Notes under the pieces: generated by a model
The model's database searches: none
Seen by the model: the letters and a program-made list of their open reading frames with translations, nothing else
What the model was told of the DNA's origin: nothing
Translations under genes and position numbers: made by a program
NCBI RefSeq assembly: GCF_056746865.1
Contig: NZ_CM163382.1
Length of the DNA stretch: 64,000 nt
Direction: 5' to 3' (one strand)
Part shown: piece by piece, positions 2,756 to 55,100 of the stretch
Position numbering within the stretch: the first letter of the stretch is position 1
Layout: the number at the start of each line of letters is the position of its first letter

Positions 2756-3010
2756 TCAAAAGCCGTTCAGTTTGCGATCGCGCGCCCACTCCGCAGGGGT
2801 ATACGCTTTGATCGACACAGCATGAATGCGGTTATCCGCAATATATTCCATCAGCGGCCCATAGACCGTCTGCTGTTTTTTAACCCGACTCATGCCGTCA
2901 AACAACTCACCCACGGCAATAACCTGAAAGTGGCTGCCATCGCCGGAAACGTGGACTTCCTGGAGGGAGAGAGCGTTCATCAACACGCTCTGAATTTCAT
3001 TATTTTCCAT
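2756..3010 (-). CDS. ibaG: BolA-family acid-stress protein IbaG (YrbA)
   Basis: ORF track 2756..3025; start trimmed to internal Met ([14 protein letters not shown]…, 84 aa). Confidence 0.8.
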
Positions 3011-3129
3011 GGGATCTTCAATCATCAGTTAATAAACCAGCGAAACATCTTAGAGCAAAGTTGCGCTGGCATAAATAAGCAAAAAGCCTCGCTGATAAAT
3101 CAGACAAGGCTCGACTTGCAGGCAGGTTT

Positions 3130-3159
3130 GCCGGACAGGCGTTAACGCCATATCCGGCC
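3130..3159. repeat. REP-like palindromic element between ibaG and mlaB
   Basis: GCCGGACAGGCGTTAACGCCATATCCGGCC. Confidence 0.5.
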
Positions 3160-3168
3160 TGAAAAAAT

Positions 3169-3461
3169 TTAACGAGGCAGAACATCAGCAGGCAAATTAT
3201 ACAATTTCGCCAGGGTATACACTTTATCGTTTACCCCCTGAAGCGTCACGTTGTTGCCCTGCTTTTTCGCCAGATCGATAAGATGGAGCAGCAGTGCCAG
3301 TCCACCCGTATCCACGCGGGACACACGGCTAAGATCGATGCAGGTAATCCCCTTCACCGCTTCCTCACGCATTTCCCAAAGCGGTAGCAGAACGTCCTGA
3401 TCCAGCTCTCCGGATAGCGCCAGCGTGTCACCCGTCTGCATCCAGCTCAGTGACTCGCTCA

Positions 3462-13275: not shown

Positions 13276-13320
13276 TTATTCGGTAATGTCTCTTTTAGAC
13301 GTTGTGAGGAGAAACAGTAC

Positions 13321-14175
13321 ATGGTACTGATGATCGTCAGCGGACGTTCAGGTTCAGGTAAATCTGTCGCCCTGCGTGCGCTGGAAGATATGGGTTTTTA
13401 CTGCGTGGATAACCTTCCCGTAGTGTTGTTACCCGATCTGGCTCGAACTCTGGCCGATCGCGAGATTTCTGCCGCCGTCAGCATTGATGTTCGTAATATG
13501 CCGGAGTCACCAGAAATATTCGAACAGGCGATGAGTAACCTGCCTGACGCTTTCTCACCGCAACTCCTGTTCCTGGATGCCGACCGTAATACCTTAATTC
13601 GTCGTTACAGTGACACGCGCCGACTGCATCCGCTTTCCAGCAAAAACCTGTCGCTGGAAAGTGCTATCGACAAAGAAAGCGATTTGCTGGAGCCTCTGCG
13701 TTCGCGAGCGGATCTGATTGTCGATACCTCAGAAATGTCCGTTCACGAGCTGGCAGAAATGCTGCGTACCCGTCTGCTGGGTAAACGTGAACGTGAACTG
13801 ACCATGGTCTTTGAGTCTTTCGGCTTCAAACACGGTATCCCTATCGATGCAGATTACGTCTTTGACGTGCGCTTCTTGCCGAACCCGCACTGGGATCCGA
13901 AACTGCGTCCAATGACAGGTCTTGATAAGCCCGTCGCCGCGTTCCTCGACCGCCACACAGAAGTACACAATTTTATCTACCAGACGCGAAGCTATCTTGA
14001 GCTATGGTTACCTATGCTGGAAACCAACAACCGTAGCTACCTGACGGTCGCCATTGGTTGTACCGGCGGGAAGCACCGTTCGGTGTATATTGCAGAGCAA
14101 CTGGCAGACTACTTCCGCTCGCGCGGTAAAAATGTCCAGTCACGCCATCGTACGCTGGAAAAACGTAAACCATGA
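13321..14175 (+). CDS. rapZ: RNase adaptor protein RapZ (P-loop NTPase)
   Basis: 284-aa ORF; Walker A GRSGSGKS near N-terminus. Confidence 0.9.
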
Positions 14176-14444
14176 CCGTCAAGCAAACTGTTGAAATCAC
14201 AAACAAGCTGGGCATGCATGCCCGGCCTGCAATGAAGCTGTTTGAATTAATGCAAGGTTTTGACGCTGAAGTGCTGTTACGTAATGACGAAGGCACCGAG
14301 GCTGAAGCCAACAGCGTTATTGCGCTGCTGATGTTGGATTCTGCCAAAGGACGGCAGATTGAAGTTGAAGCGACCGGTCCACAGGAAGAGGAAGCACTGG
14401 CCGCCGTTATCGCCCTCTTTAACTCTGGTTTTGATGAAGATTAA
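14172..14444 (+). CDS. npr: nitrogen-related HPr-like phosphocarrier NPr
   Basis: 90-aa [27 protein letters not shown]… (HPr fold, active His); 4-nt overlap with rapZ. Confidence 0.9.
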
Positions 14445-14589
14445 TCTTCATCACTTTGACATTCAAATCCCTTCAAGCTCCCCCGGCAATAAGAAAAGCG
14501 CGTACTGAAATCGTTCTCAATCAACGTCAATTGTACATTTCGTGCGCTTTTTACTTTCAGAAGAACCTTAAGAAAACCTTAAGAAGCAT

Positions 14590-14606
14590 TGTTTAGGTTT
14601 CGTTTA
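14590..14606 (+). promoter_or_regulatory. PhoP-box-like direct repeat upstream of yrbL
   Basis: TGTTTAGGTTTCGTTTA = (T/G)GTTTA-N5-(T/C)GTTTA about 50 bp upstream of the yrbL ATG. Confidence 0.5.
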
Positions 14607-14656
14607 AGTTAATCGACCATACTGGAGATCGTCAGAAAATATTTCCAGGAGATGGC

Positions 14657-15289
14657 ATGATTCGCTTATCTGAACAAAGTCCCCTGGGCACCGGAAGACA
14701 TCGGAAATGTTATGCGCATCCGGAAGATGCCCAACGCTGTATCAAGATTGTCTACCATCGTGGCGATGGTGGCGATAAAGAGATCCGCCGTGAGTTAAAG
14801 TACTACGCGCATCTTGGTCGCCGGTTAAAAGACTGGAGTGGAATACCGCGCTATCACGGTACCGTTGAGACGGATTGCGGAACCGGTTATGTCTACGATG
14901 TGATTGCAGATTTTGACGGCAAACCCTCCATTACGCTGACCGAATTTGCTGAACAATGCCGTTACGAAGAAGACATTGCACAACTGCGCCAGATACTGAA
15001 ACAGCTGAAGCGTTATTTGCAGGATAACCGTATCGTGACGATGTCGCTGAAGCCGCAGAATATCCTCTGTCACCGCATCAGTGAGTCAGAGGTTATCCCC
15101 GTCGTCTGCGACAACATTGGTGAAAGCACATTGATTCCACTGGCGACCTGGTCGAAGTGGTGTTGTCTGCGTAAGCAAGAGCGGTTATGGAAACGATTTA
15201 TCGCCCAACCGGCGCTGGCTATTGCCCTGCAGAAAGATCTGCAACCTCGTGAGAGCAAAACGCTGGCCCTCACTTCGCGCGAAGCTTAA
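14657..15289 (+). CDS. yrbL: PhoP-regulon protein YrbL
   Basis: 210-aa ORF in the expected position; PhoP-box-like repeat upstream. Confidence 0.8.
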
Positions 15290-16014
15290 TCAAGCTGGTG
15301 CTGTTGCATAAACGACTCACCGCCTAACTGATACATCTGCCGTAAAATCCACGCCTGACGGCCACGCACGTAGCCCGATGGCGCGGAGACTTTGAAACGA
15401 AGTGGATTAGGTAATACAGCTGCCAGTAATGCAGCTTCCGAGCGGGTAAGTTTGCTCGCGGGTTTGTGGAAATAACGTTGTGCCGCAGCTTCGACGCCAA
15501 ACACACCGTCGCCAAATTCGGCGATATTCAGGTAAACCGTCAGGATACGCTTTTTGCTCCAGACAGTTTCTATCCCCAGCGTTAATCCAGCTTCCAGCCC
15601 TTTTCGAACCCAGCTACGCCCATCCCATAAAAAGAGATTTTTGGCTGTCTGCTGAGAAATCGTTGACGCACCGCGAATACGGTTTTCATTGCGCTCGTTG
15701 TGGGCCAGGGCTTGCTCAATGGAGGCGACATCAAAGCCCCAGTGCTCAGGAAACTTCTGATCTTCTGCGGCAATCACCGCCAGTCCCATCCACGGCGAAA
15801 TTTGATCCATACTGACCCAGTCAGAATGTGCCACGTAACGAAAATTGCCATGCAGCCAGGCGCTGACTTGTCGCTCGGCCATTACCGCTGAGAAAGGAAC
15901 AGGCGCAACGCTAAACAACGCGATGCCCCCGCCCCAGAAAACGGCGAGGACAACCATTAACCGCAGAAGAAAACGGCGAACGAAACTAAACACCGTTAAG
16001 CGGCTTTTACTCAT
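15286..16014 (-). CDS. mtgA: monofunctional peptidoglycan glycosyltransferase
   Basis: 242-aa ORF with N-terminal TM helix and GT51 transglycosylase motifs. Confidence 0.9.
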
Positions 16015-16664
16015 TCAGCCAGAACCAGCACGCGGGAAACCAGCTTATCAATGCCGCTCGCCGCTTCTGCAATGTTCTGCGCCAGCATATATGCCGGGGT
16101 GGTGACAATCTTATTGTCTTCATCAACCACGATATCATCGACAGGACACGGCACATGCTCCGCGCCCATCTCTTCCAGCACTTCTGCGGTATCGATATCA
16201 GTACCGATGGTCAAACGCAGCGGGAAATCGAAAATTTTCGGCAGCATCGCCGGGGCAATACACATAAAACCAAGCGGTTTTCCGGCCTGATGCATCGCTT
16301 GTGCCAGCGCCTTTAATTCACGGTCAACGGTGCATTCGCTACCAAGACTGGCAAAATTGCTTAAATTCTTCGCCGCGCCAAAACCCCCCGGCACAATCAA
16401 CGCATCCAGTTCAGCGGCATCGGCCTGGGCCAGAGGACGGATTTCACCGCGCGTTATTCGTGCCGCTTCAATCAGCACATTGCGCGTTTCCGTCATCGCT
16501 TCGCCCGTTAAATGGTTGATAACATCAACCTGCTGCTTATCCGGTGCAAAGCAGACCGCCTGCGCACCGCTGCGTGAAATAGCTAACAACGTCAACACCG
16601 CTTCATGAATTTCAGAACCGTCATAGACGCCGCATCCGCTCAGAATTACGCCAATTTTCTTCAT
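16011..16664 (-). CDS. elbB: DJ-1/PfpI-family glyoxalase ElbB
   Basis: Start at internal Met [21 protein letters not shown]… (217 aa). Confidence 0.85.
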
Positions 16665-16781
16665 TGTGATCATCCTTTCGCAATTGACTGAAACACATTA
16701 ATTTTTTTAATAAAAATGCTACGCATCACACATTTAACTGATTCATGTAACAAATCATTTAAGTTTTGCTATCTTAACTGC

Positions 16782-16902
16782 GTGCAGCCTGAAAAACAGT
16801 GCTGTGCCCTTGTAACTCATCATAATAATTTACGGCGCAGCCAAGATTTCCCTGGTGTTGGCGCAGTATTCGCGCACCCCGGTCTAGCCGGGGTCATTTT
16901 TT
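16782..16902 (+). ncRNA. arcZ: ArcZ small RNA (Hfq-dependent), 3' end convergent with and overlapping arcB stop
   Basis: Sequence GTGCAGCCTGAAAAACAGTGCTGTGCC…GGCGCAGTATTCGCGCACCCCGGTCTAGCCGGGGTCATTTTTT matches the ArcZ sequence as I recall it, including seed region and intrinsic terminator. Confidence 0.8.
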
Positions 16903-19230
16903 AGTGGCTTTTGCCACCCACGCTTTCAGTACTTCTACGTCGTGACGCCACTCTTCTTTCATCTCTTCAATCCATTCACCGACGTTATCTTCCCAGGCGG
17001 GAAGGTCAGGAGACTGAATTTGCTGACCCAGCTGTTGCAGATGGCGTAACCCCACTGACCCCGCCGCACCTTTAATTTTATGTCCTTCCTCAACAATGCC
17101 TTTTTTATCCTGCGCCGTCAGATTCGACTCCAGCACGCTGACATAGCCCGGCATCATCTTCTCAAACACCGCTAACCCGTCGGTGATCAGCTTCGGTCCT
17201 ACAAGTTCGAGATACTGTTCCAGCATGGGAATATCGAGCAATGCTTCTGATTTACTGTTCTCTTCTGTCGTCACCGTACTTTCCTCATCATCCTGGGTAT
17301 CCCAGAATTTCTTGATCATCGCGGTTAGCGCCGGAACAGAAAGCGGCTTACTCAGCACATCATCCATTCCAGCATTGAGGTACTCTTGCTTGTCTTTCAG
17401 CACGTTAGCGGTTAAGGCCACCAGCGGCGGTAAATCCTCGCGCGGATAACGCTTCGTCAGTTCACGAGAGATATCCAGCCCGGTCATATCTGGCAACTGA
17501 ATATCCAGCAACACCAGGTCGTATTCGCCCGGTTTAAACATTTCCAGCGCCGCCTTGCCGGTCATGGCGACATCAACGCTGTTACCTAATTTTTCCAGCA
17601 CAGAGCGTGCGACAATCACGTTCAGTTCAATATCTTCCACCAGCAGCACATTCAGCGCCGGTAAAGGCATATCGTCTTCATCAAACGCATCATCGACCTC
17701 TTCAGCCACCGACGGTGCGTGGATCGTCAACGTAAAGGTTGAACCTTTGCCCTGTTCGCTGGTAACCGTAATATCGCCGCCCATATTTTTCGCCAGACGA
17801 CGAGAAACGGCCAGACCAATACCGGTGCCGGTGGCAGGTTTACCGCCATGACTGTCTTTCACCTGGTAATACATGGCAAAGATTTTATCCAGCTCATCCT
17901 GCGGAATGCCGATACCAGAGTCTTCCACTTCAAAATGCAGCATATCGCCTTCATCGTAGCGCACGCGCACGGTAACCTGGCCTTGCTGGGTGAATTTGAC
18001 GGCGTTACTGATGAGATTCCACAGGATCTGCCGTAAACGCGTCCCGTCGGTAATGACCTGATGCGGTAATGGCAGCGTAGGCTCCAGATTAAAGCGCAAT
18101 CCTTTTTGTTGCGCCTGCAATGCGGAGAGATTTTCCAGATCGGCAAGGAAGCTGGTGAAATCAACCGGCTGATTATCAAGCTGGACCTTACGCCGTTCCA
18201 TCTTATCCATGTCGATAATATCGTTGAAGATATTCCCGAGCGTGACGGCCGAAACATGGATGGTTTTGAGATATTTTTCCTGCTCGGCGGTGAGTTCGGT
18301 ATCCAGCAGAATGCGGCTCAGGCCGACGATACCATTCAGCGGTGTACGCAATTCGTGACTGATGGTGGAAATAAACGTCGTTTTGTCGCGGCTGGCGCGT
18401 TCAAGCGCATCCTGATACCGCTTACGCTCGGTAATGTCGCGACCAAAACCCATCAAACCGTGACGTTTACCCACGCGGTCGTAGTACGGCACTTTACGGA
18501 TTTCAAAACAGGCTTTGCGCCCGTCCGGGTAATCCAGCCACTGTTCATAGGTCAGTGACACATTATGACGGAACACTTTTTCATCGGTTTCAATGACTTT
18601 CGCAGCGGCTTCCGGTGAGTAAACATCAGCAGGTTTCAGGTGAACCAGTTGTTTTTCGCTTTTTCCGGTCAGCAGCTCCATCGCGCGGTTACAGCCGGAA
18701 AACTCTTTATCTTCGTTACGATAAAAAACCAGGTCGGGTGAAGCGTCAAGGAAGGAACGTAAGAATGAGGATTGCTGCTCGAGCTGAATTTGTGTCTCTT
18801 CGCGCTCTTTGATTTCAATTTTCAGTTGGCCGAAGGTTTCCTGCAGTTCTGCTTCCGCTTTTTCACGAACGGCGATTTCCTGATTTAGCTGGGCAATATT
18901 ATCTTTTAACTGAACGTTGAGGCTCAAATCGCGCTCGCGCATCTCCTCCAGTTTTTGCACCAGTCGTGACAGACGTTGTCGTGACTCCTCCAGTTGCTCG
19001 ACGACCACCGATAGAAAGTAGACCGCCCACGGCGTAATCAGCAAACCAAAGAAGATAGAACGAATAACATCAATGCTTTCGACCTGACCATGCAGCACCA
19101 TGGTTACCGCCATTTGTACCACAATGGCAAGAACGACGAGGGCCAGCGCCAGCAACATTGAGAAGCGCACCAGACCTAACTTCATCATCAGGTCAACATA
19201 ATACTGCGCCAGCAGACGAATTTGCTTCAT
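16894..19230 (-). CDS. arcB: aerobic respiration control sensor histidine kinase
   Basis: 778-aa ORF: TM, PAS, HisKA/HATPase, receiver and HPt domains. Confidence 0.95.
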   Translation of the reverse strand: MKQIRLLAQYYVDLMMKLGLVRFSMLLALALVVLAIVVQMAVTMVLHGQVESIDVIRSIFFGLLITPWAVYFLSVVVEQLEESRQRLSRLVQKLEEMRERDLSLNVQLKDNIAQLNQEIAVREKAEAELQETFGQLKIEIKEREETQIQLEQQSSFLRSFLDASPDLVFYRNEDKEFSGCNRAMELLTGKSEKQLVHLKPADVYSPEAAAKVIETDEKVFRHNVSLTYEQWLDYPDGRKACFEIRKVPYYDRVGKRHGLMGFGRDITERKRYQDALERASRDKTTFISTISHELRTPLNGIVGLSRILLDTELTAEQEKYLKTIHVSAVTLGNIFNDIIDMDKMERRKVQLDNQPVDFTSFLADLENLSALQAQQKGLRFNLEPTLPLPHQVITDGTRLRQILWNLISNAVKFTQQGQVTVRVRYDEGDMLHFEVEDSGIGIPQDELDKIFAMYYQVKDSHGGKPATGTGIGLAVSRRLAKNMGGDITVTSEQGKGSTFTLTIHAPSVAEEVDDAFDEDDMPLPALNVLLVEDIELNVIVARSVLEKLGNSVDVAMTGKAALEMFKPGEYDLVLLDIQLPDMTGLDISRELTKRYPREDLPPLVALTANVLKDKQEYLNAGMDDVLSKPLSVPALTAMIKKFWDTQDDEESTVTTEENSKSEALLDIPMLEQYLELVGPKLITDGLAVFEKMMPGYVSVLESNLTAQDKKGIVEEGHKIKGAAGSVGLRHLQQLGQQIQSPDLPAWEDNVGEWIEEMKEEWRHDVEVLKAWVAKATKK

Positions 19231-26821: not shown

Positions 26822-27004
26822 GCTCTGTCCCAGCGCCGCCTCCTCAGAAAAGAGTCGGCGCTGAAATTCTCCTTTCTTTCTGGAAAGCGCCTCGCATAAT
26901 CTGAAGAAAACCAATGTAATACGCTCATCTGGATTGTTACCGGCAGATGCCCGGCGTATAGCTGATTCCATTATTCAACACAGCGCCATAAAAAGGGACA
27001 GATA

Positions 27005-33774: not shown

Positions 33775-33783
33775 AACGGAATA
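33775..33783. repeat. IS1 target-site duplication, left copy (AACGGAATA)
   Basis: Identical 9-mer directly flanks both IS1 termini. Confidence 0.85.
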
Positions 33784-33798
33784 GGTAATGACTCCAAC

Positions 33799-34302
33799 TT
33801 ATTGATAGTGTTTTATGTTCAGATAATGCCCGATGACTTTGTCATGCAGCTCCACCGATTTTGAGAACGACAGCGACTTCCGTCCCAGCCGTGCCAGGTG
33901 CTGCCTCAGATTCAGGTTATGCCGCTCAATTCGCTGCGTATATCGCTTGCTGATTACGTGCAGCTTTCCCTTCAGGCGGGATTCATACAGCGGCCAGCCA
34001 TCCGTCATCCATATCACCACGTCAAAGGGTGACAGCAGGCTCATAAGACGCCCCAGCGTCGCCATAGTGCGTTCACCGAATACGTGCGCAACAACCGTCT
34101 TCCGGAGCCTGTCATACGCGTAAAACAGCCAGCGCTGGCGCGATTTAGCCCCGACGTATCCCCACTGTTCGTCCATTTCCGCGCAGACGATGACGTCACT
34201 GCCCGGCTGTATGCGCGAGGTTACCGACTGCGGCCTGAGTTTTTTAAATGGCGGAAAATCGTGTTGAGGCCAACGCCCATAATGCGGGCGGTTGCCCGGC
34301 AT
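33799..34302 (-). CDS. insB: IS1 transposase InsB reading frame (expressed as InsAB' by -1 frameshift)
   Basis: 167-aa [28 protein letters not shown]… overlapping insA 3' end in the -1 frame. Confidence 0.85.
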
Positions 34303-34496
34303 CCAACGCCATTCATGGCCATATCAATGATTTTCTGGTGCGTACCGGGTTGAGAAGCGGTGTAAGTGAACTGCAGTTGCCATGTTTTACGGCAGTGAGA
34401 GCAGAGATAGCGCTGATGTCCGGCAGTGCTTTTGCCGTTACGCACCACCCCGTCAGTAGCTGAACAGGAGGGACAGCTGATAGAAACAGAAGCCAC
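34221..34496 (-). CDS. insA: IS1 InsA transcriptional repressor / transposase N-terminal part
   Basis: 91-aa [46 protein letters not shown]… (zinc finger + HTH). Confidence 0.9.
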
Positions 34497-34551
34497 TGGA
34501 GCACCTCAAAAACACCATCATACACTAAATCAGTAAGTTGGCAGCATCACC

Positions 34552-34560
34552 AACGGAATA
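34552..34560. repeat. IS1 target-site duplication, right copy (AACGGAATA)
   Basis: Identical 9-mer to 33775-33783. Confidence 0.85.
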
Positions 34561-51994: not shown

Positions 51995-52026
51995 TTAGTT
52001 ACTGCAGTAGAGGATTTTTTACGGCT

Positions 52027-52060
52027 GCCGGATGCGGCGTGAACGCCCTATCCGGCCTAC
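52027..52060. repeat. REP (repetitive extragenic palindromic) element between tldD and yhdP
   Basis: GCCGGATGCGGCGTGAACGCCCTATCCGGCCTAC matches the canonical E. coli REP consensus. Confidence 0.75.
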
Positions 52061-52134: not shown

Positions 52135-55100
52135 TCATTGCGCTTTTTCTTTACGCGGTTGGCGCAACACTTCGTTGATTTGCGGATCGTCCAGCGGACC
52201 CGAAATGTGATAGCGCAAAATGGAGACTTTGCTCCACAGCGGCCCCAGCACTTTACTGGCTGCAAACACTGCCGCGCCAACAATGGGGTTAACCGCAAAA
52301 GCCGCAGCCACGCCCACCGTCGCAGAAATCTCTGGTGCGACAACCGCTTCCATATTCAGGTCGCGACGCACCAGATTTACCGACCCTTTCATGGCAATGT
52401 CCGCTTCCAGGCCATCCACCAGCGTGTCGTCGGTGTGCATAACGCCGTCTTTAATCCACGCGGTGCTGCGAATGGAGTCAAAATAGAACCCTTCACCAAA
52501 GGTGTCTCTGAAATCAAAACGCAGCTTACGCATCAGGGCATCAACGCTCAATAAGCGCAGCAATTGCCCGGCATGTCCGGTATTGATTTCGGTAATTTCG
52601 CCTTTGCCCAGTTGAGTATGAATGATGCCATTCAACGTCGCCTCATCTGGTTGCCAGGGTGCTTTGCGCCAGTGTAAATCGTAATCCACATTAAATGACG
52701 ACTGGCGTATGGGCGTCGTGACACCAAAAAATTCTGCGGCGGCATCAATTTTCTGCCCACGCAGTTTTCCTTTCAGCGAGGTGCGTTCATTTCCCGGATT
52801 GTTAACCCATTCACCATCGGCAGTAAGCCGCGAGAAACCAGTATCAATCAGTCCATTGGTCAGCGTTAATGTATTGCCAGAAATGGTGATATCACTGTCA
52901 ATGCGCCCGAATTTTTGCCCCCAGAACCAGCACTCTGCGCATCGTATTTGGGCGTCCGGCCAGCCACGGAAGTTAATGCGCTCCGTTGTCGGGAAAGGTG
53001 ATGACTGTGTTGAATCACCACGAGTTTTCGCCACGCTCGGGTTGTAATAAAGATATTTGATATTCGCCAGCCACGGCGCGTTATTACGCATCGCCAGCGT
53101 GGCGTTGATTTCACGCCCTTGCGCCTCAACCAGGGTGCCATTTGCCGTCGGTTGCGAAACAATACTCAGGTTATTCCATTGCTGATTTCCCAGCGACAAC
53201 ATAGGCGTACGTAACGTTATGTGTTGTGGGAAACTCGCTGCACCACCGACACTCTCCGCCGCGCCTTTCTGGAACAGGGCCAGCCACTCGGCACCATTCA
53301 TCGGCGGCATATTGAGTTCAACGCCACTTTGTTCCGGCAACGGCGGGAGCGTTTTACTGTCTGCCGCCCAAATAGCACGGTCGAGCGTCAGCTTTTGACC
53401 AAGCAACCAGCGGCTATTGAAATGGTTATCTGCACCAGCCTGTCCGGTTAACTCAAAGCTGTTGAGATTGCCATCAACCTTAACGTTTACCGGTAGTGGT
53501 TCACCCGCAGGTTTGGCTAACGGTGAAGGTAAGTGACTGCTCACATTCTTCAGATCGCCGTTCAGCTCTACGTTATAGGTCGCGCCAGCATGATAAGGCA
53601 ACTCAATGCCCACTTTACCATCCCACGCCACGCTGCCATTTAATGCTTCGTTCACCGCTTCAGGCAGAACGCCGGTTTTCGCTGGTTGCCAGTTACCGTT
53701 GAGATTCACCGCGACCTGGTAGGCTTTTGCCCCTTCTTTGGTGGAAAAATCCACGTTCAACGGCTGATTAAACCAGCTTGCTGTCAGTGGTTCACTTTGC
53801 AGATCGCCATTAATAAAGCTGAATTTCCCGCTCAAATTTTTCAGGGTGCTGTCGAGTGGTTTGATAAACAGACTGTTATTACGCAGCGTCACTTCACCTT
53901 TCGCGGTTACCAGTTCGCCGTTCAGCGGGATATCAAGATGTAAGCGAGCATTCACATCGCCGTCGAGCTGGAGTTCTTGCAGGGTCGCACCCAGAGAATC
54001 TTTCAGCGGTGTCTCATCAAAGTAAGGGCCAACGGCTTTACCCGGGCCTTTAATGTCAGTGTCAATCAGCAGTTTTTCTTTTGAGTAGTCAGGGATCACT
54101 GCGGTGAGATTACTCGCGCGCACGCCGCCCAGATTAACGCCATCGGTTTTCATCCATAAACCGTCGTTGATAAAGTCCAGTTCAATATCAAGGTTAGTTA
54201 ATGCAGGCCAGTCCGGCTGGAAGGCAAACTTCGCGTTGCGCAGCGGCACCAGCACTTCAAACTGACCTTCGTTGTGTTTATAGGGGAAGAGTTGCGGATT
54301 GCCACCATAAACCAGCGTCGCGTTATCCGCTTCTCCGCCCTGAATCGCGCCACTTAAGTAATCAACCAGGTCTTTACCCATCAAGTTTTCCGGGAAATAG
54401 CGCCAGGCTTGTGAACCATCATCGGTACTGATGCCAGCCAGAATACCCAGCCAGGGTTCATCGTTAGCTGGTTGCAGGTAACGAAAACCGCCGCGCGCAT
54501 GGACGGCTTTGGCTTTAACGTCAATATTACGCCCATCCAGCTGGAAACCTTTGTCATTGTTCAGCCAGCTTATCGTTGCCTGGCCGTCGGCGATTTCCAG
54601 TGGCGCACGGAATACCGTTTCGTAAGGCATCTTTGCCTGTTTCATCGACGCGGTAAGCAAACCATTTTCTACGCTGCCGGAAAGCGTCCCGGAGAAGTGT
54701 TCCGCACCCGGTAATAATTTCCATTGATTCCAGGCCAGATCGCTCCACGATGCCTGAAAACGGGTCTTGTCTGCCGCCTGAAGCGGGATATCCAGCGCCA
54801 GAGTGTTAATCTTGCCGCTCGGTTGTGTGGAGCGCCAAACATCACCCAGTGCAGGTGAAAGTTTCGCGGCCAGCGGGCGTATGCCCTCCAGGCCTGCCAG
54901 CTCCAGATTACTGGCGCGAATCCGGAGTTCGTCACTGCGTTTATTGTCTTTGCCGCCAACGTCCTGTTCCGGTATCCAGGCCAGCGTCAATGCTCCGCTC
55001 GGCCAGGGTTTGCCGTCCATCGTGATCCGTGTGTCGGGAATAGAGAACTGCCAGCCCGGATTTTCACGCGTAATATGCGCGGTCAGATTATCCACCGACA

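Follow-up and report, generated by a model that had tools for sequence, protein, structure and literature searches.

The arcZ locus between elbB and arcB

The whole stretch of DNA that was analysed, 64 kb in length and referred to below as the window, was scanned with Rfam 15 at gathering thresholds. The scan showed that the covariance model RF00081 (ArcZ) matched positions 16782-16889 of the + strand with a score of 120.1 bits against a gathering score of 66 (E = 6.2e-27), and that the match spanned the full model (positions 1-106 of 106). When the RefSeq record of Escherichia coli K-12 MG1655 was offset to the window, the arcZ gene (b4450) fell on 16782-16902 (+) and the arcB gene (b3210) on 16894-19230 (-). 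The first-pass annotation had reported ArcZ at 16782-16902, and both the RF00081 score and the base-for-base agreement with the coordinates of K-12 arcZ bore this out. The gene is also known as sraH and ryhA. The features of the locus are the following (position, strand, description, basis).

16011-16664, - strand: elbB, the divergent upstream neighbour and boundary of the spacer (K-12 annotation mapped to the window; ORF list)
16719, + strand: substitution at promoter position -63, C in the window and G in K-12 (alignment to K-12)
16722-16755, + strand: conserved upstream block GCATCACACATTTAACTGATTCATGTAACAAA, including the -35-like GTAACA at 16747-16752, a candidate regulator-binding region (footprinting)
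16767-16775, + strand: extended -10 (TGC TATCTT), 6 nt upstream of the transcription start site (footprinting)
16782-16902, + strand: arcZ, full-length ArcZ primary transcript of 121 nt (Rfam RF00081; K-12 arcZ coordinates; 120/121 nt identical to K-12)
16786, + strand: substitution at ArcZ +5, A in the window and G in K-12, a minority allele (alignment to K-12)
16845-16849, + strand: RNase E cleavage motif GA↓UUU, consensus RN↓WUU (sequence; consensus from PMC11331407)
16847-16902, + strand: processed 56-nt ArcZ, the 3' part, with the putative cut before U16847; same as in K-12
16850-16865, + strand: conserved seed block CCCUGGUGUUGGCGCA (exact match)
16876-16902, + strand: Rho-independent terminator, stem-loop 16876-16894 followed by the U-run; Hfq-binding 3' end (terminator scan)
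16894-16902, both strands: convergent 9-nt overlap of arcZ and arcB, covering the arcB TGA stop and the codons of Lys778 and Lys777; it reads UCAUUUUUU of ArcZ on the + strand
16894-19230, - strand: arcB, sensor histidine kinase, 778 aa (K-12 annotation; protein comparison)

The locus shares with K-12 arcZ its position, the length of 121 nt, the orientation, the neighbours elbB and arcB and the 9-nt overlap. The RNase E site, the seed, the seed-proximal hairpin, the terminator, the -35-like element and the extended -10 are likewise the same in both, and the encoded ArcB is identical to that of K-12 in 778/778 residues. The gene and its arrangement are already known. The K-12 annotation and the literature both describe this gene in this place, and its description in the first-pass annotation as established rather than novel biology is correct.

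It should be noted that the PGAP RefSeq record of E. coli 118UI (NZ_CP032515.1) shows the elbB-arcB interval (2991-3221) without any feature. The arcZ locus of 118UI is 100% identical to that of the window, yet arcZ is unannotated there, unlike in the K-12 record. The 118UI record indicates that the gene missing from a feature table does not imply that the gene itself is missing.

Comparison with K-12 and allele frequencies

To K-12 we aligned 257 nt (16664-16920) comprising the start of elbB, the spacer, arcZ and the end of arcB. The alignment contained no indels and two substitutions: the RNA differs from K-12 by G5 to A and the promoter by G to C at -63. Nucleotides 6-121 of ArcZ, the seed and the terminator included, are the same as in K-12. 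The earlier statements that the elbB-arcB spacer is intact and that the seed and the terminator are present therefore hold, since the spacer has the length of its K-12 counterpart and no substitution was found in nt 6-121. Alignment to a reference ArcZ had been named in the first-pass annotation as the way to detect disruptive substitutions in the seed or terminator; it revealed none, yet +5 and -63 do differ from K-12. As the window is ~98.5% identical to K-12 over its first 26.8 kb, a single difference in 121 nt does not exceed the background.

The frequencies of both alleles were determined among 5,426 complete E. coli genomes by exact 30-mers. For this, 30-nt queries were centred on the SNP, and the 28-base word of megablast thus requires the allele. 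The -63 C is the majority state among species (42/48 distinct species promoter sequences), and its exact 30-mer was found in 1,819 of the 5,426 E. coli genomes. At +5, the A form was present in 125 of these genomes (2.3%), which come from varied hosts, and the G form in 5,251.

The arcZ locus was found in 5,416 of the 5,426 genomes. Fifty-four of the 5,416 matched genomes cover less than 80% of the locus query (window 16674-16910). In strain HSP60, the match begins at query position 93 (~16766 of the window, within the -10 region), and a further place elsewhere also matches. Such cases of reduced cover suggest that, in some strains, the arcZ promoter carries an insertion or falls in a gap of the assembly.

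Conservation of ArcZ across Enterobacterales

A 38-nt core of the RNA, GAUUUCCCUGGUGUUGGCGCAGUAUUCGCGCACCCCGG, was found to be exact in 74 species-representative genomes across Enterobacterales. As this core is exact in 74 species and the locus occurs in 5,416/5,426 E. coli genomes, the assignment to ArcZ is far beyond chance. In the alignment of 37 distinct full-length ArcZ sequences, the columns from about nt 53 onward were invariant or nearly so, and the 5' half varied in both sequence and length. Namely, the orthologues of Salmonella, Citrobacter, Enterobacter, Kosakonia, Phytobacter, Yersinia and others have the same exact 38-nt core and the terminator, but their 5' halves diverge and their lengths range from 119 to 133 nt.

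The +5 substitution lies in the variable half. Column 5 is G or A across genera; an A stands there in 8 of the 37 distinct sequences (seven species and the window), including Kosakonia, Phytobacter and Yokenella. The A at +5 is shared by Kosakonia, Phytobacter and Atlantibacter with the window, and it always faces a U (U23) in the local 5' hairpin described below.

Processing site and seed

The active 56-nt 3' form arises from the 121-nt ArcZ, to which Hfq binds, through a cut by RNase E at the sequence RN↓WUU (PMC11331407). The CCCUGGUGUUGGCGCA block right after the cut is highly conserved and is required for the unique RNase E cleavage, and the seed domain was used by 330 of 335 RIL-seq interactions (PMC11331407). 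In the window, the sequence GA↓UUU lies directly 5' of the seed block and predicts a product of 56 nt (55-60 nt expected), and the conserved 3' part contains the CCCUGGUGUUGGCGCA block as an exact match at 16850-16865. The processed 56-nt RNA is the same in the A5 and G5 alleles. The seed is also the same as in K-12, for which pairing with targets is published; judging by this identity, target pairing, that with the rpoS leader included, is expected of this copy.

We conclude, with a probability of about 97%, that 16782-16902 (+) is the canonical E. coli arcZ gene, which encodes an Hfq-dependent trans-acting small RNA and is expected to be fully functional. The expectation of full function follows from the fact that the only difference of the RNA from K-12 is the G-to-A change at +5, and that the 5' segment in which it lies is discarded on processing.

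The +5 A allele and folding of the precursor

Three mutually exclusive helices make use of nt 20-27 of the precursor. They were scored by pair counts over the 37 distinct sequences, with the following results (columns of the alignment).

Columns 1-9 with 19-27: local 5' hairpin; 88.6% of cells paired, four pairs changed on both sides; position 5 is G·U in 20 sequences, A-U in 8 and unpaired in 9
Columns 21-28 with 59-66: Rfam stem; 93.9% of cells paired; position 5 lies outside the stem
Columns 1-6 with 95-100 and 19-28 with 85-94: long-range helix between the 5' region and the seed-proximal region; 93.2% and 85.9% of cells paired; position 5 is G-C in 29 sequences and unpaired in all 8 that have A

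All three candidate helices were thus 86-94% paired, and the shuffle controls were weak. Covariation is impossible in the long-range helix, as its 3' side does not vary.

Thermodynamic prediction gave a different minimum-energy structure for each allele. With G5, the 5' end pairs with nt 89-94 and nt 18-27 pair with nt 79-88; with A5, the local 5' hairpin forms instead. The predicted probability of pairing between the 5' end and nt 89-94 fell from 0.90 (G5) to 0.22 (A5), and the local hairpin of A5 reached 0.57. The alternative folds are 1-3 kcal/mol apart, which is within the error of the model. The predicted accessibility changed from 0.34 to 0.41 at the cleavage site and from 0.37 to 0.43 in the seed on going from G5 to A5.

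From these models, it could be proposed that A5 removes the G5-C90 pair of the predicted long-range helix, which would sequester the seed-proximal region, and shifts the precursor to the local hairpin, so that the rate of ArcZ processing in this lineage, or the activity of the unprocessed form, would be altered. We regard such an effect as improbable, and the A5 allele, which looks harmless, was judged benign.

Still less probable, though the likeliest of the rival readings, is that arcZ is present but hypomorphic or non-functional, the +5 A refolding the 121-nt precursor in such a way that the Hfq-guided cleavage by RNase E would be less efficient. The difference in predicted folding, long-range with G5 and a local hairpin with A5, speaks for this, as does the rarity of A5 (125/5,426 genomes). 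Moreover, single substitutions that alter the structure of the precursor can block its processing by RNase E (PMC11331407), and the processing of ArcZ can be lost through a single substitution at a distance, as in the natural G-to-A allele of Dickeya solani (PMC11331407). However, the gaps in energy that separate the folds are of the size of the model error, and the predicted accessibility of the cleavage site and of the seed goes slightly up, not down. The +5 A is also the natural state in seven other species sequences with the identical 3' core, and in E. coli it persists in 125 genomes from varied hosts.

The comparison with D. solani points in the same direction. The arcZ genes of D. solani and of the window are both natural single-nucleotide G-to-A variants predicted to alter the folding of the precursor. 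In D. solani IPO2222, the change lies 17 nt past the cleavage site, in the conserved 3' core, and was shown to block processing (PMC11331407). The change in the window lies at +5, in the variable 5' part that is discarded, and the known loss-of-function position in the 3' core is unchanged here (G16863).

Coding potential of the transcript

The stretch could also be read as a small protein gene or a dual-function RNA. A frame of 40 codons runs from a 5'-terminal GUG to a TAG just past the U-run, as part of a 62-aa ORF at 16716-16904; in E. coli, E. albertii and some further species it stays open along the entire RNA. However, no more than 16 of the 37 species keep the frame open. The lengths of ArcZ differ by non-multiples of three, and across genera three different frames run through the invariant 3' core. 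The 5' end has neither a Shine-Dalgarno sequence nor an AUG, and the conservation is at the level of nucleotides, the pattern expected of an RNA. The 40-codon frame was rejected on account of its being open in 16/37 species and of the three frames in which the invariant core is read, and a coding role of the stretch is scarcely credible.

Promoter, terminator and overlap with arcB

The transcription start site of arcZ was taken from the K-12 annotation and the literature; it was mapped experimentally in K-12. Phylogenetic footprinting of 48 distinct promoter sequences showed no variation in TTTGCTATCTTA, and the extended -10, TGCTATCTT, ends 6 nt before the annotated +1. The transcript thus has a promoter of its own on the + strand, opposite to arcB, with the invariant TTTGCTATCTTA 6 nt before +1. 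A generic sigma-70 scan called no arcZ promoter, because the hexamers GTAACA and TATCTT match the consensus at only 8 of 12 positions.

Further upstream, the columns of the block TCACACATTTnACTGATTCATGTAACAA, at about -60 to -28, were near-invariant in the 48 sequences. Phosphorylated ArcA was reported to bind the arcZ promoter and to repress it at low oxygen (PMC11331407); an ArcA ChIP study reported no site upstream of arcZ (PMC3798270). The pattern TGTTA-N6-TGTTA with up to two mismatches had no match in 16674-16781, but this pattern is naive and barely enriched across the window (52 hits in the whole window vs 40.5 expected). The conserved upstream block may be a site for phosphorylated ArcA, and direct binding of ArcA at the arcZ promoter is uncertain.

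At the other end of the gene, the terminator scan identified a stem of 8 pairs, including 6 G-C pairs, with CATTTTTT behind it, on the + strand only. The stem columns were invariant in the 37 distinct ArcZ sequences. The trinucleotide at 16894-16896 reads TCA on the + strand, which is the TGA stop of arcB on the - strand, and the end of arcB on that strand is AAAAAATGA, that is, ...GCC ACT AAA AAA TGA (...ATKK and stop). The U-tail of ArcZ is therefore the antisense of the last two lysine codons of arcB and its stop. That ArcZ is convergent with arcB and that its 3' end lies over the final codons of arcB had been pointed out in the first-pass annotation; the overlap can now be given as 9 nt, made up of the stop, K778 and K777, and this convergent arrangement is the synteny known for ArcZ. 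As a rule, the 3' end of arcZ shares about ten bases with arcB (PMC11331407).

The same overlap was looked for in 75 loci, namely those of the 74 species-representative genomes with the exact 38-nt core and that of the window. An overlap of 9-11 nt, with ArcB ending in KK and the arcB stop right after the terminator stem, was found in 67 of the 75 loci across Enterobacterales; it was absent in Pantoea, Pluralibacter, Edaphovirga and Chimaeribacter. With the arcB stop directly behind the stem and two lysines at the end of ArcB, the U-tail corresponds to the antisense of AAA AAA TGA or AAA AAA TAA.

On the - strand, the terminator scan found no intrinsic-terminator-like site after the arcB stop in 16600-17000, and consequently the arcB 3' UTR probably runs antisense through arcZ towards elbB. 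The absence of such a terminator fits the published suggestion that arcB mRNA reaches antisense across arcZ (PMC11331407).

The abutting of the terminator hairpin on the arcB stop, together with the missing terminator-like site on the - strand in 16600-17000, might be taken to mean that the stretch is merely the 3' untranslated tail of arcB and a terminator region resembling ArcZ, but this can be practically dismissed, as the orientation of the terminator is that of the + strand, on which alone its T-run lies, the invariant extended -10 lies at the right distance from the mapped + strand start, the covariance model matches the + strand, and the K-12 record has a separate ncRNA gene here, whose start site was mapped by experiment.

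Other RNA genes and other differences in the window

At gathering thresholds, Rfam 15 found no RNA gene besides ArcZ in the whole window, and ARAGORN found no tRNA or tmRNA in it. For the corresponding 64 kb of K-12, the annotation lists no other ncRNA. Rfam 15, ARAGORN and the K-12 RefSeq record thus agree, within the contents of these libraries, with the earlier claim that ArcZ is the only ncRNA gene that can be supported in the window.

A permissive Rfam scan returned sub-threshold matches to Rev11, to the REP-like naRNA4, to RsmY and to sR43, which were not regarded as genes. The match to Rev11, a family of antisense RNAs of soft-rot Enterobacteriaceae, covers 53834-54242 (+) at full model length, with 48.6 bits against a gathering score of 91.3 (E = 3.4e-11). 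By K-12 mapping, it is antisense to yhdP, and the conservation of the underlying coding sequence may explain it. The sub-threshold matches to naRNA4, which is REP-derived, lie at 52013-52057 (-) and 3103-3159 (-). The tldD-yhdP spacer is ~210 bp longer in K-12 than in the window, which is consistent with variation in REP copy number.

Several differences from K-12 were observed elsewhere in the window. Over the first 26.8 kb, the alignment to K-12 has three gap openings in total. At 14444-14657 and upstream, the coordinates of the genes before yrbL stand 1 nt off those of K-12 (rapZ at 13321-14175 vs 13320-14174), a shift that implies an indel of 1 bp between npr and yrbL. At 26823-26877, the K-12 segment gltF-yhcA-yhcD-yhcE::IS5-yhcF (~7.1 kb) is absent; gltD is followed by ~50 bp and then by sequence matching the K-12 region just upstream of yhcG. 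Meanwhile, an IS1 element is present at 33783-34552, between nanR and dcuD, where K-12 has none. Its genes are the following.

34221-34496, - strand: IS1 InsA
33799-34302, - strand: IS1 InsB
(Pfam PF03811, PF12759 and PF03400)

A 24.9-kb portion including this IS1 was found at 100% identity only in EC31, EF5-18-41, HSP60 and CFSAN061770 among the listed complete genomes.

Proposed working of ArcZ and its significance

On the published model of ArcZ (PMC11331407), the gene in the window would be transcribed under aerobic and stationary-phase conditions. Hfq would bind the 3' end of the RNA and RNase E would cut before U16847, freeing the active 56-nt form (PMC11331407). The seed of this form would pair with many mRNAs; on the rpoS leader (-91 to -63), it would open the inhibitory hairpin and block Rho, so that RpoS synthesis would rise (PMC11331407). 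ArcZ would also repress flhDC, mutS, tpx, sdaC and eptB, and trigger the decay of the small RNA CyaR (PMC11331407). Under low oxygen, arcZ would in turn be repressed by phosphorylated ArcA. ArcZ would lower the expression of arcB, which would close a negative feedback loop aided by the convergent overlap (PMC11331407).

Beyond the quality of the annotation, the importance of finding this gene here is small. ArcZ itself is a major and well-studied regulator, through which the sensing of oxygen by ArcAB is tied to motility, mutagenesis and the RpoS stress response; the strain has an intact copy of it. A catalogue of natural arcZ alleles and of their processing has been called for (PMC11331407), and the +5 A is one such natural allele with a predicted effect on folding. 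If the effect of A5 on the precursor were true, it would amount to a subtle retuning of the control of RpoS, motility and mutagenesis.
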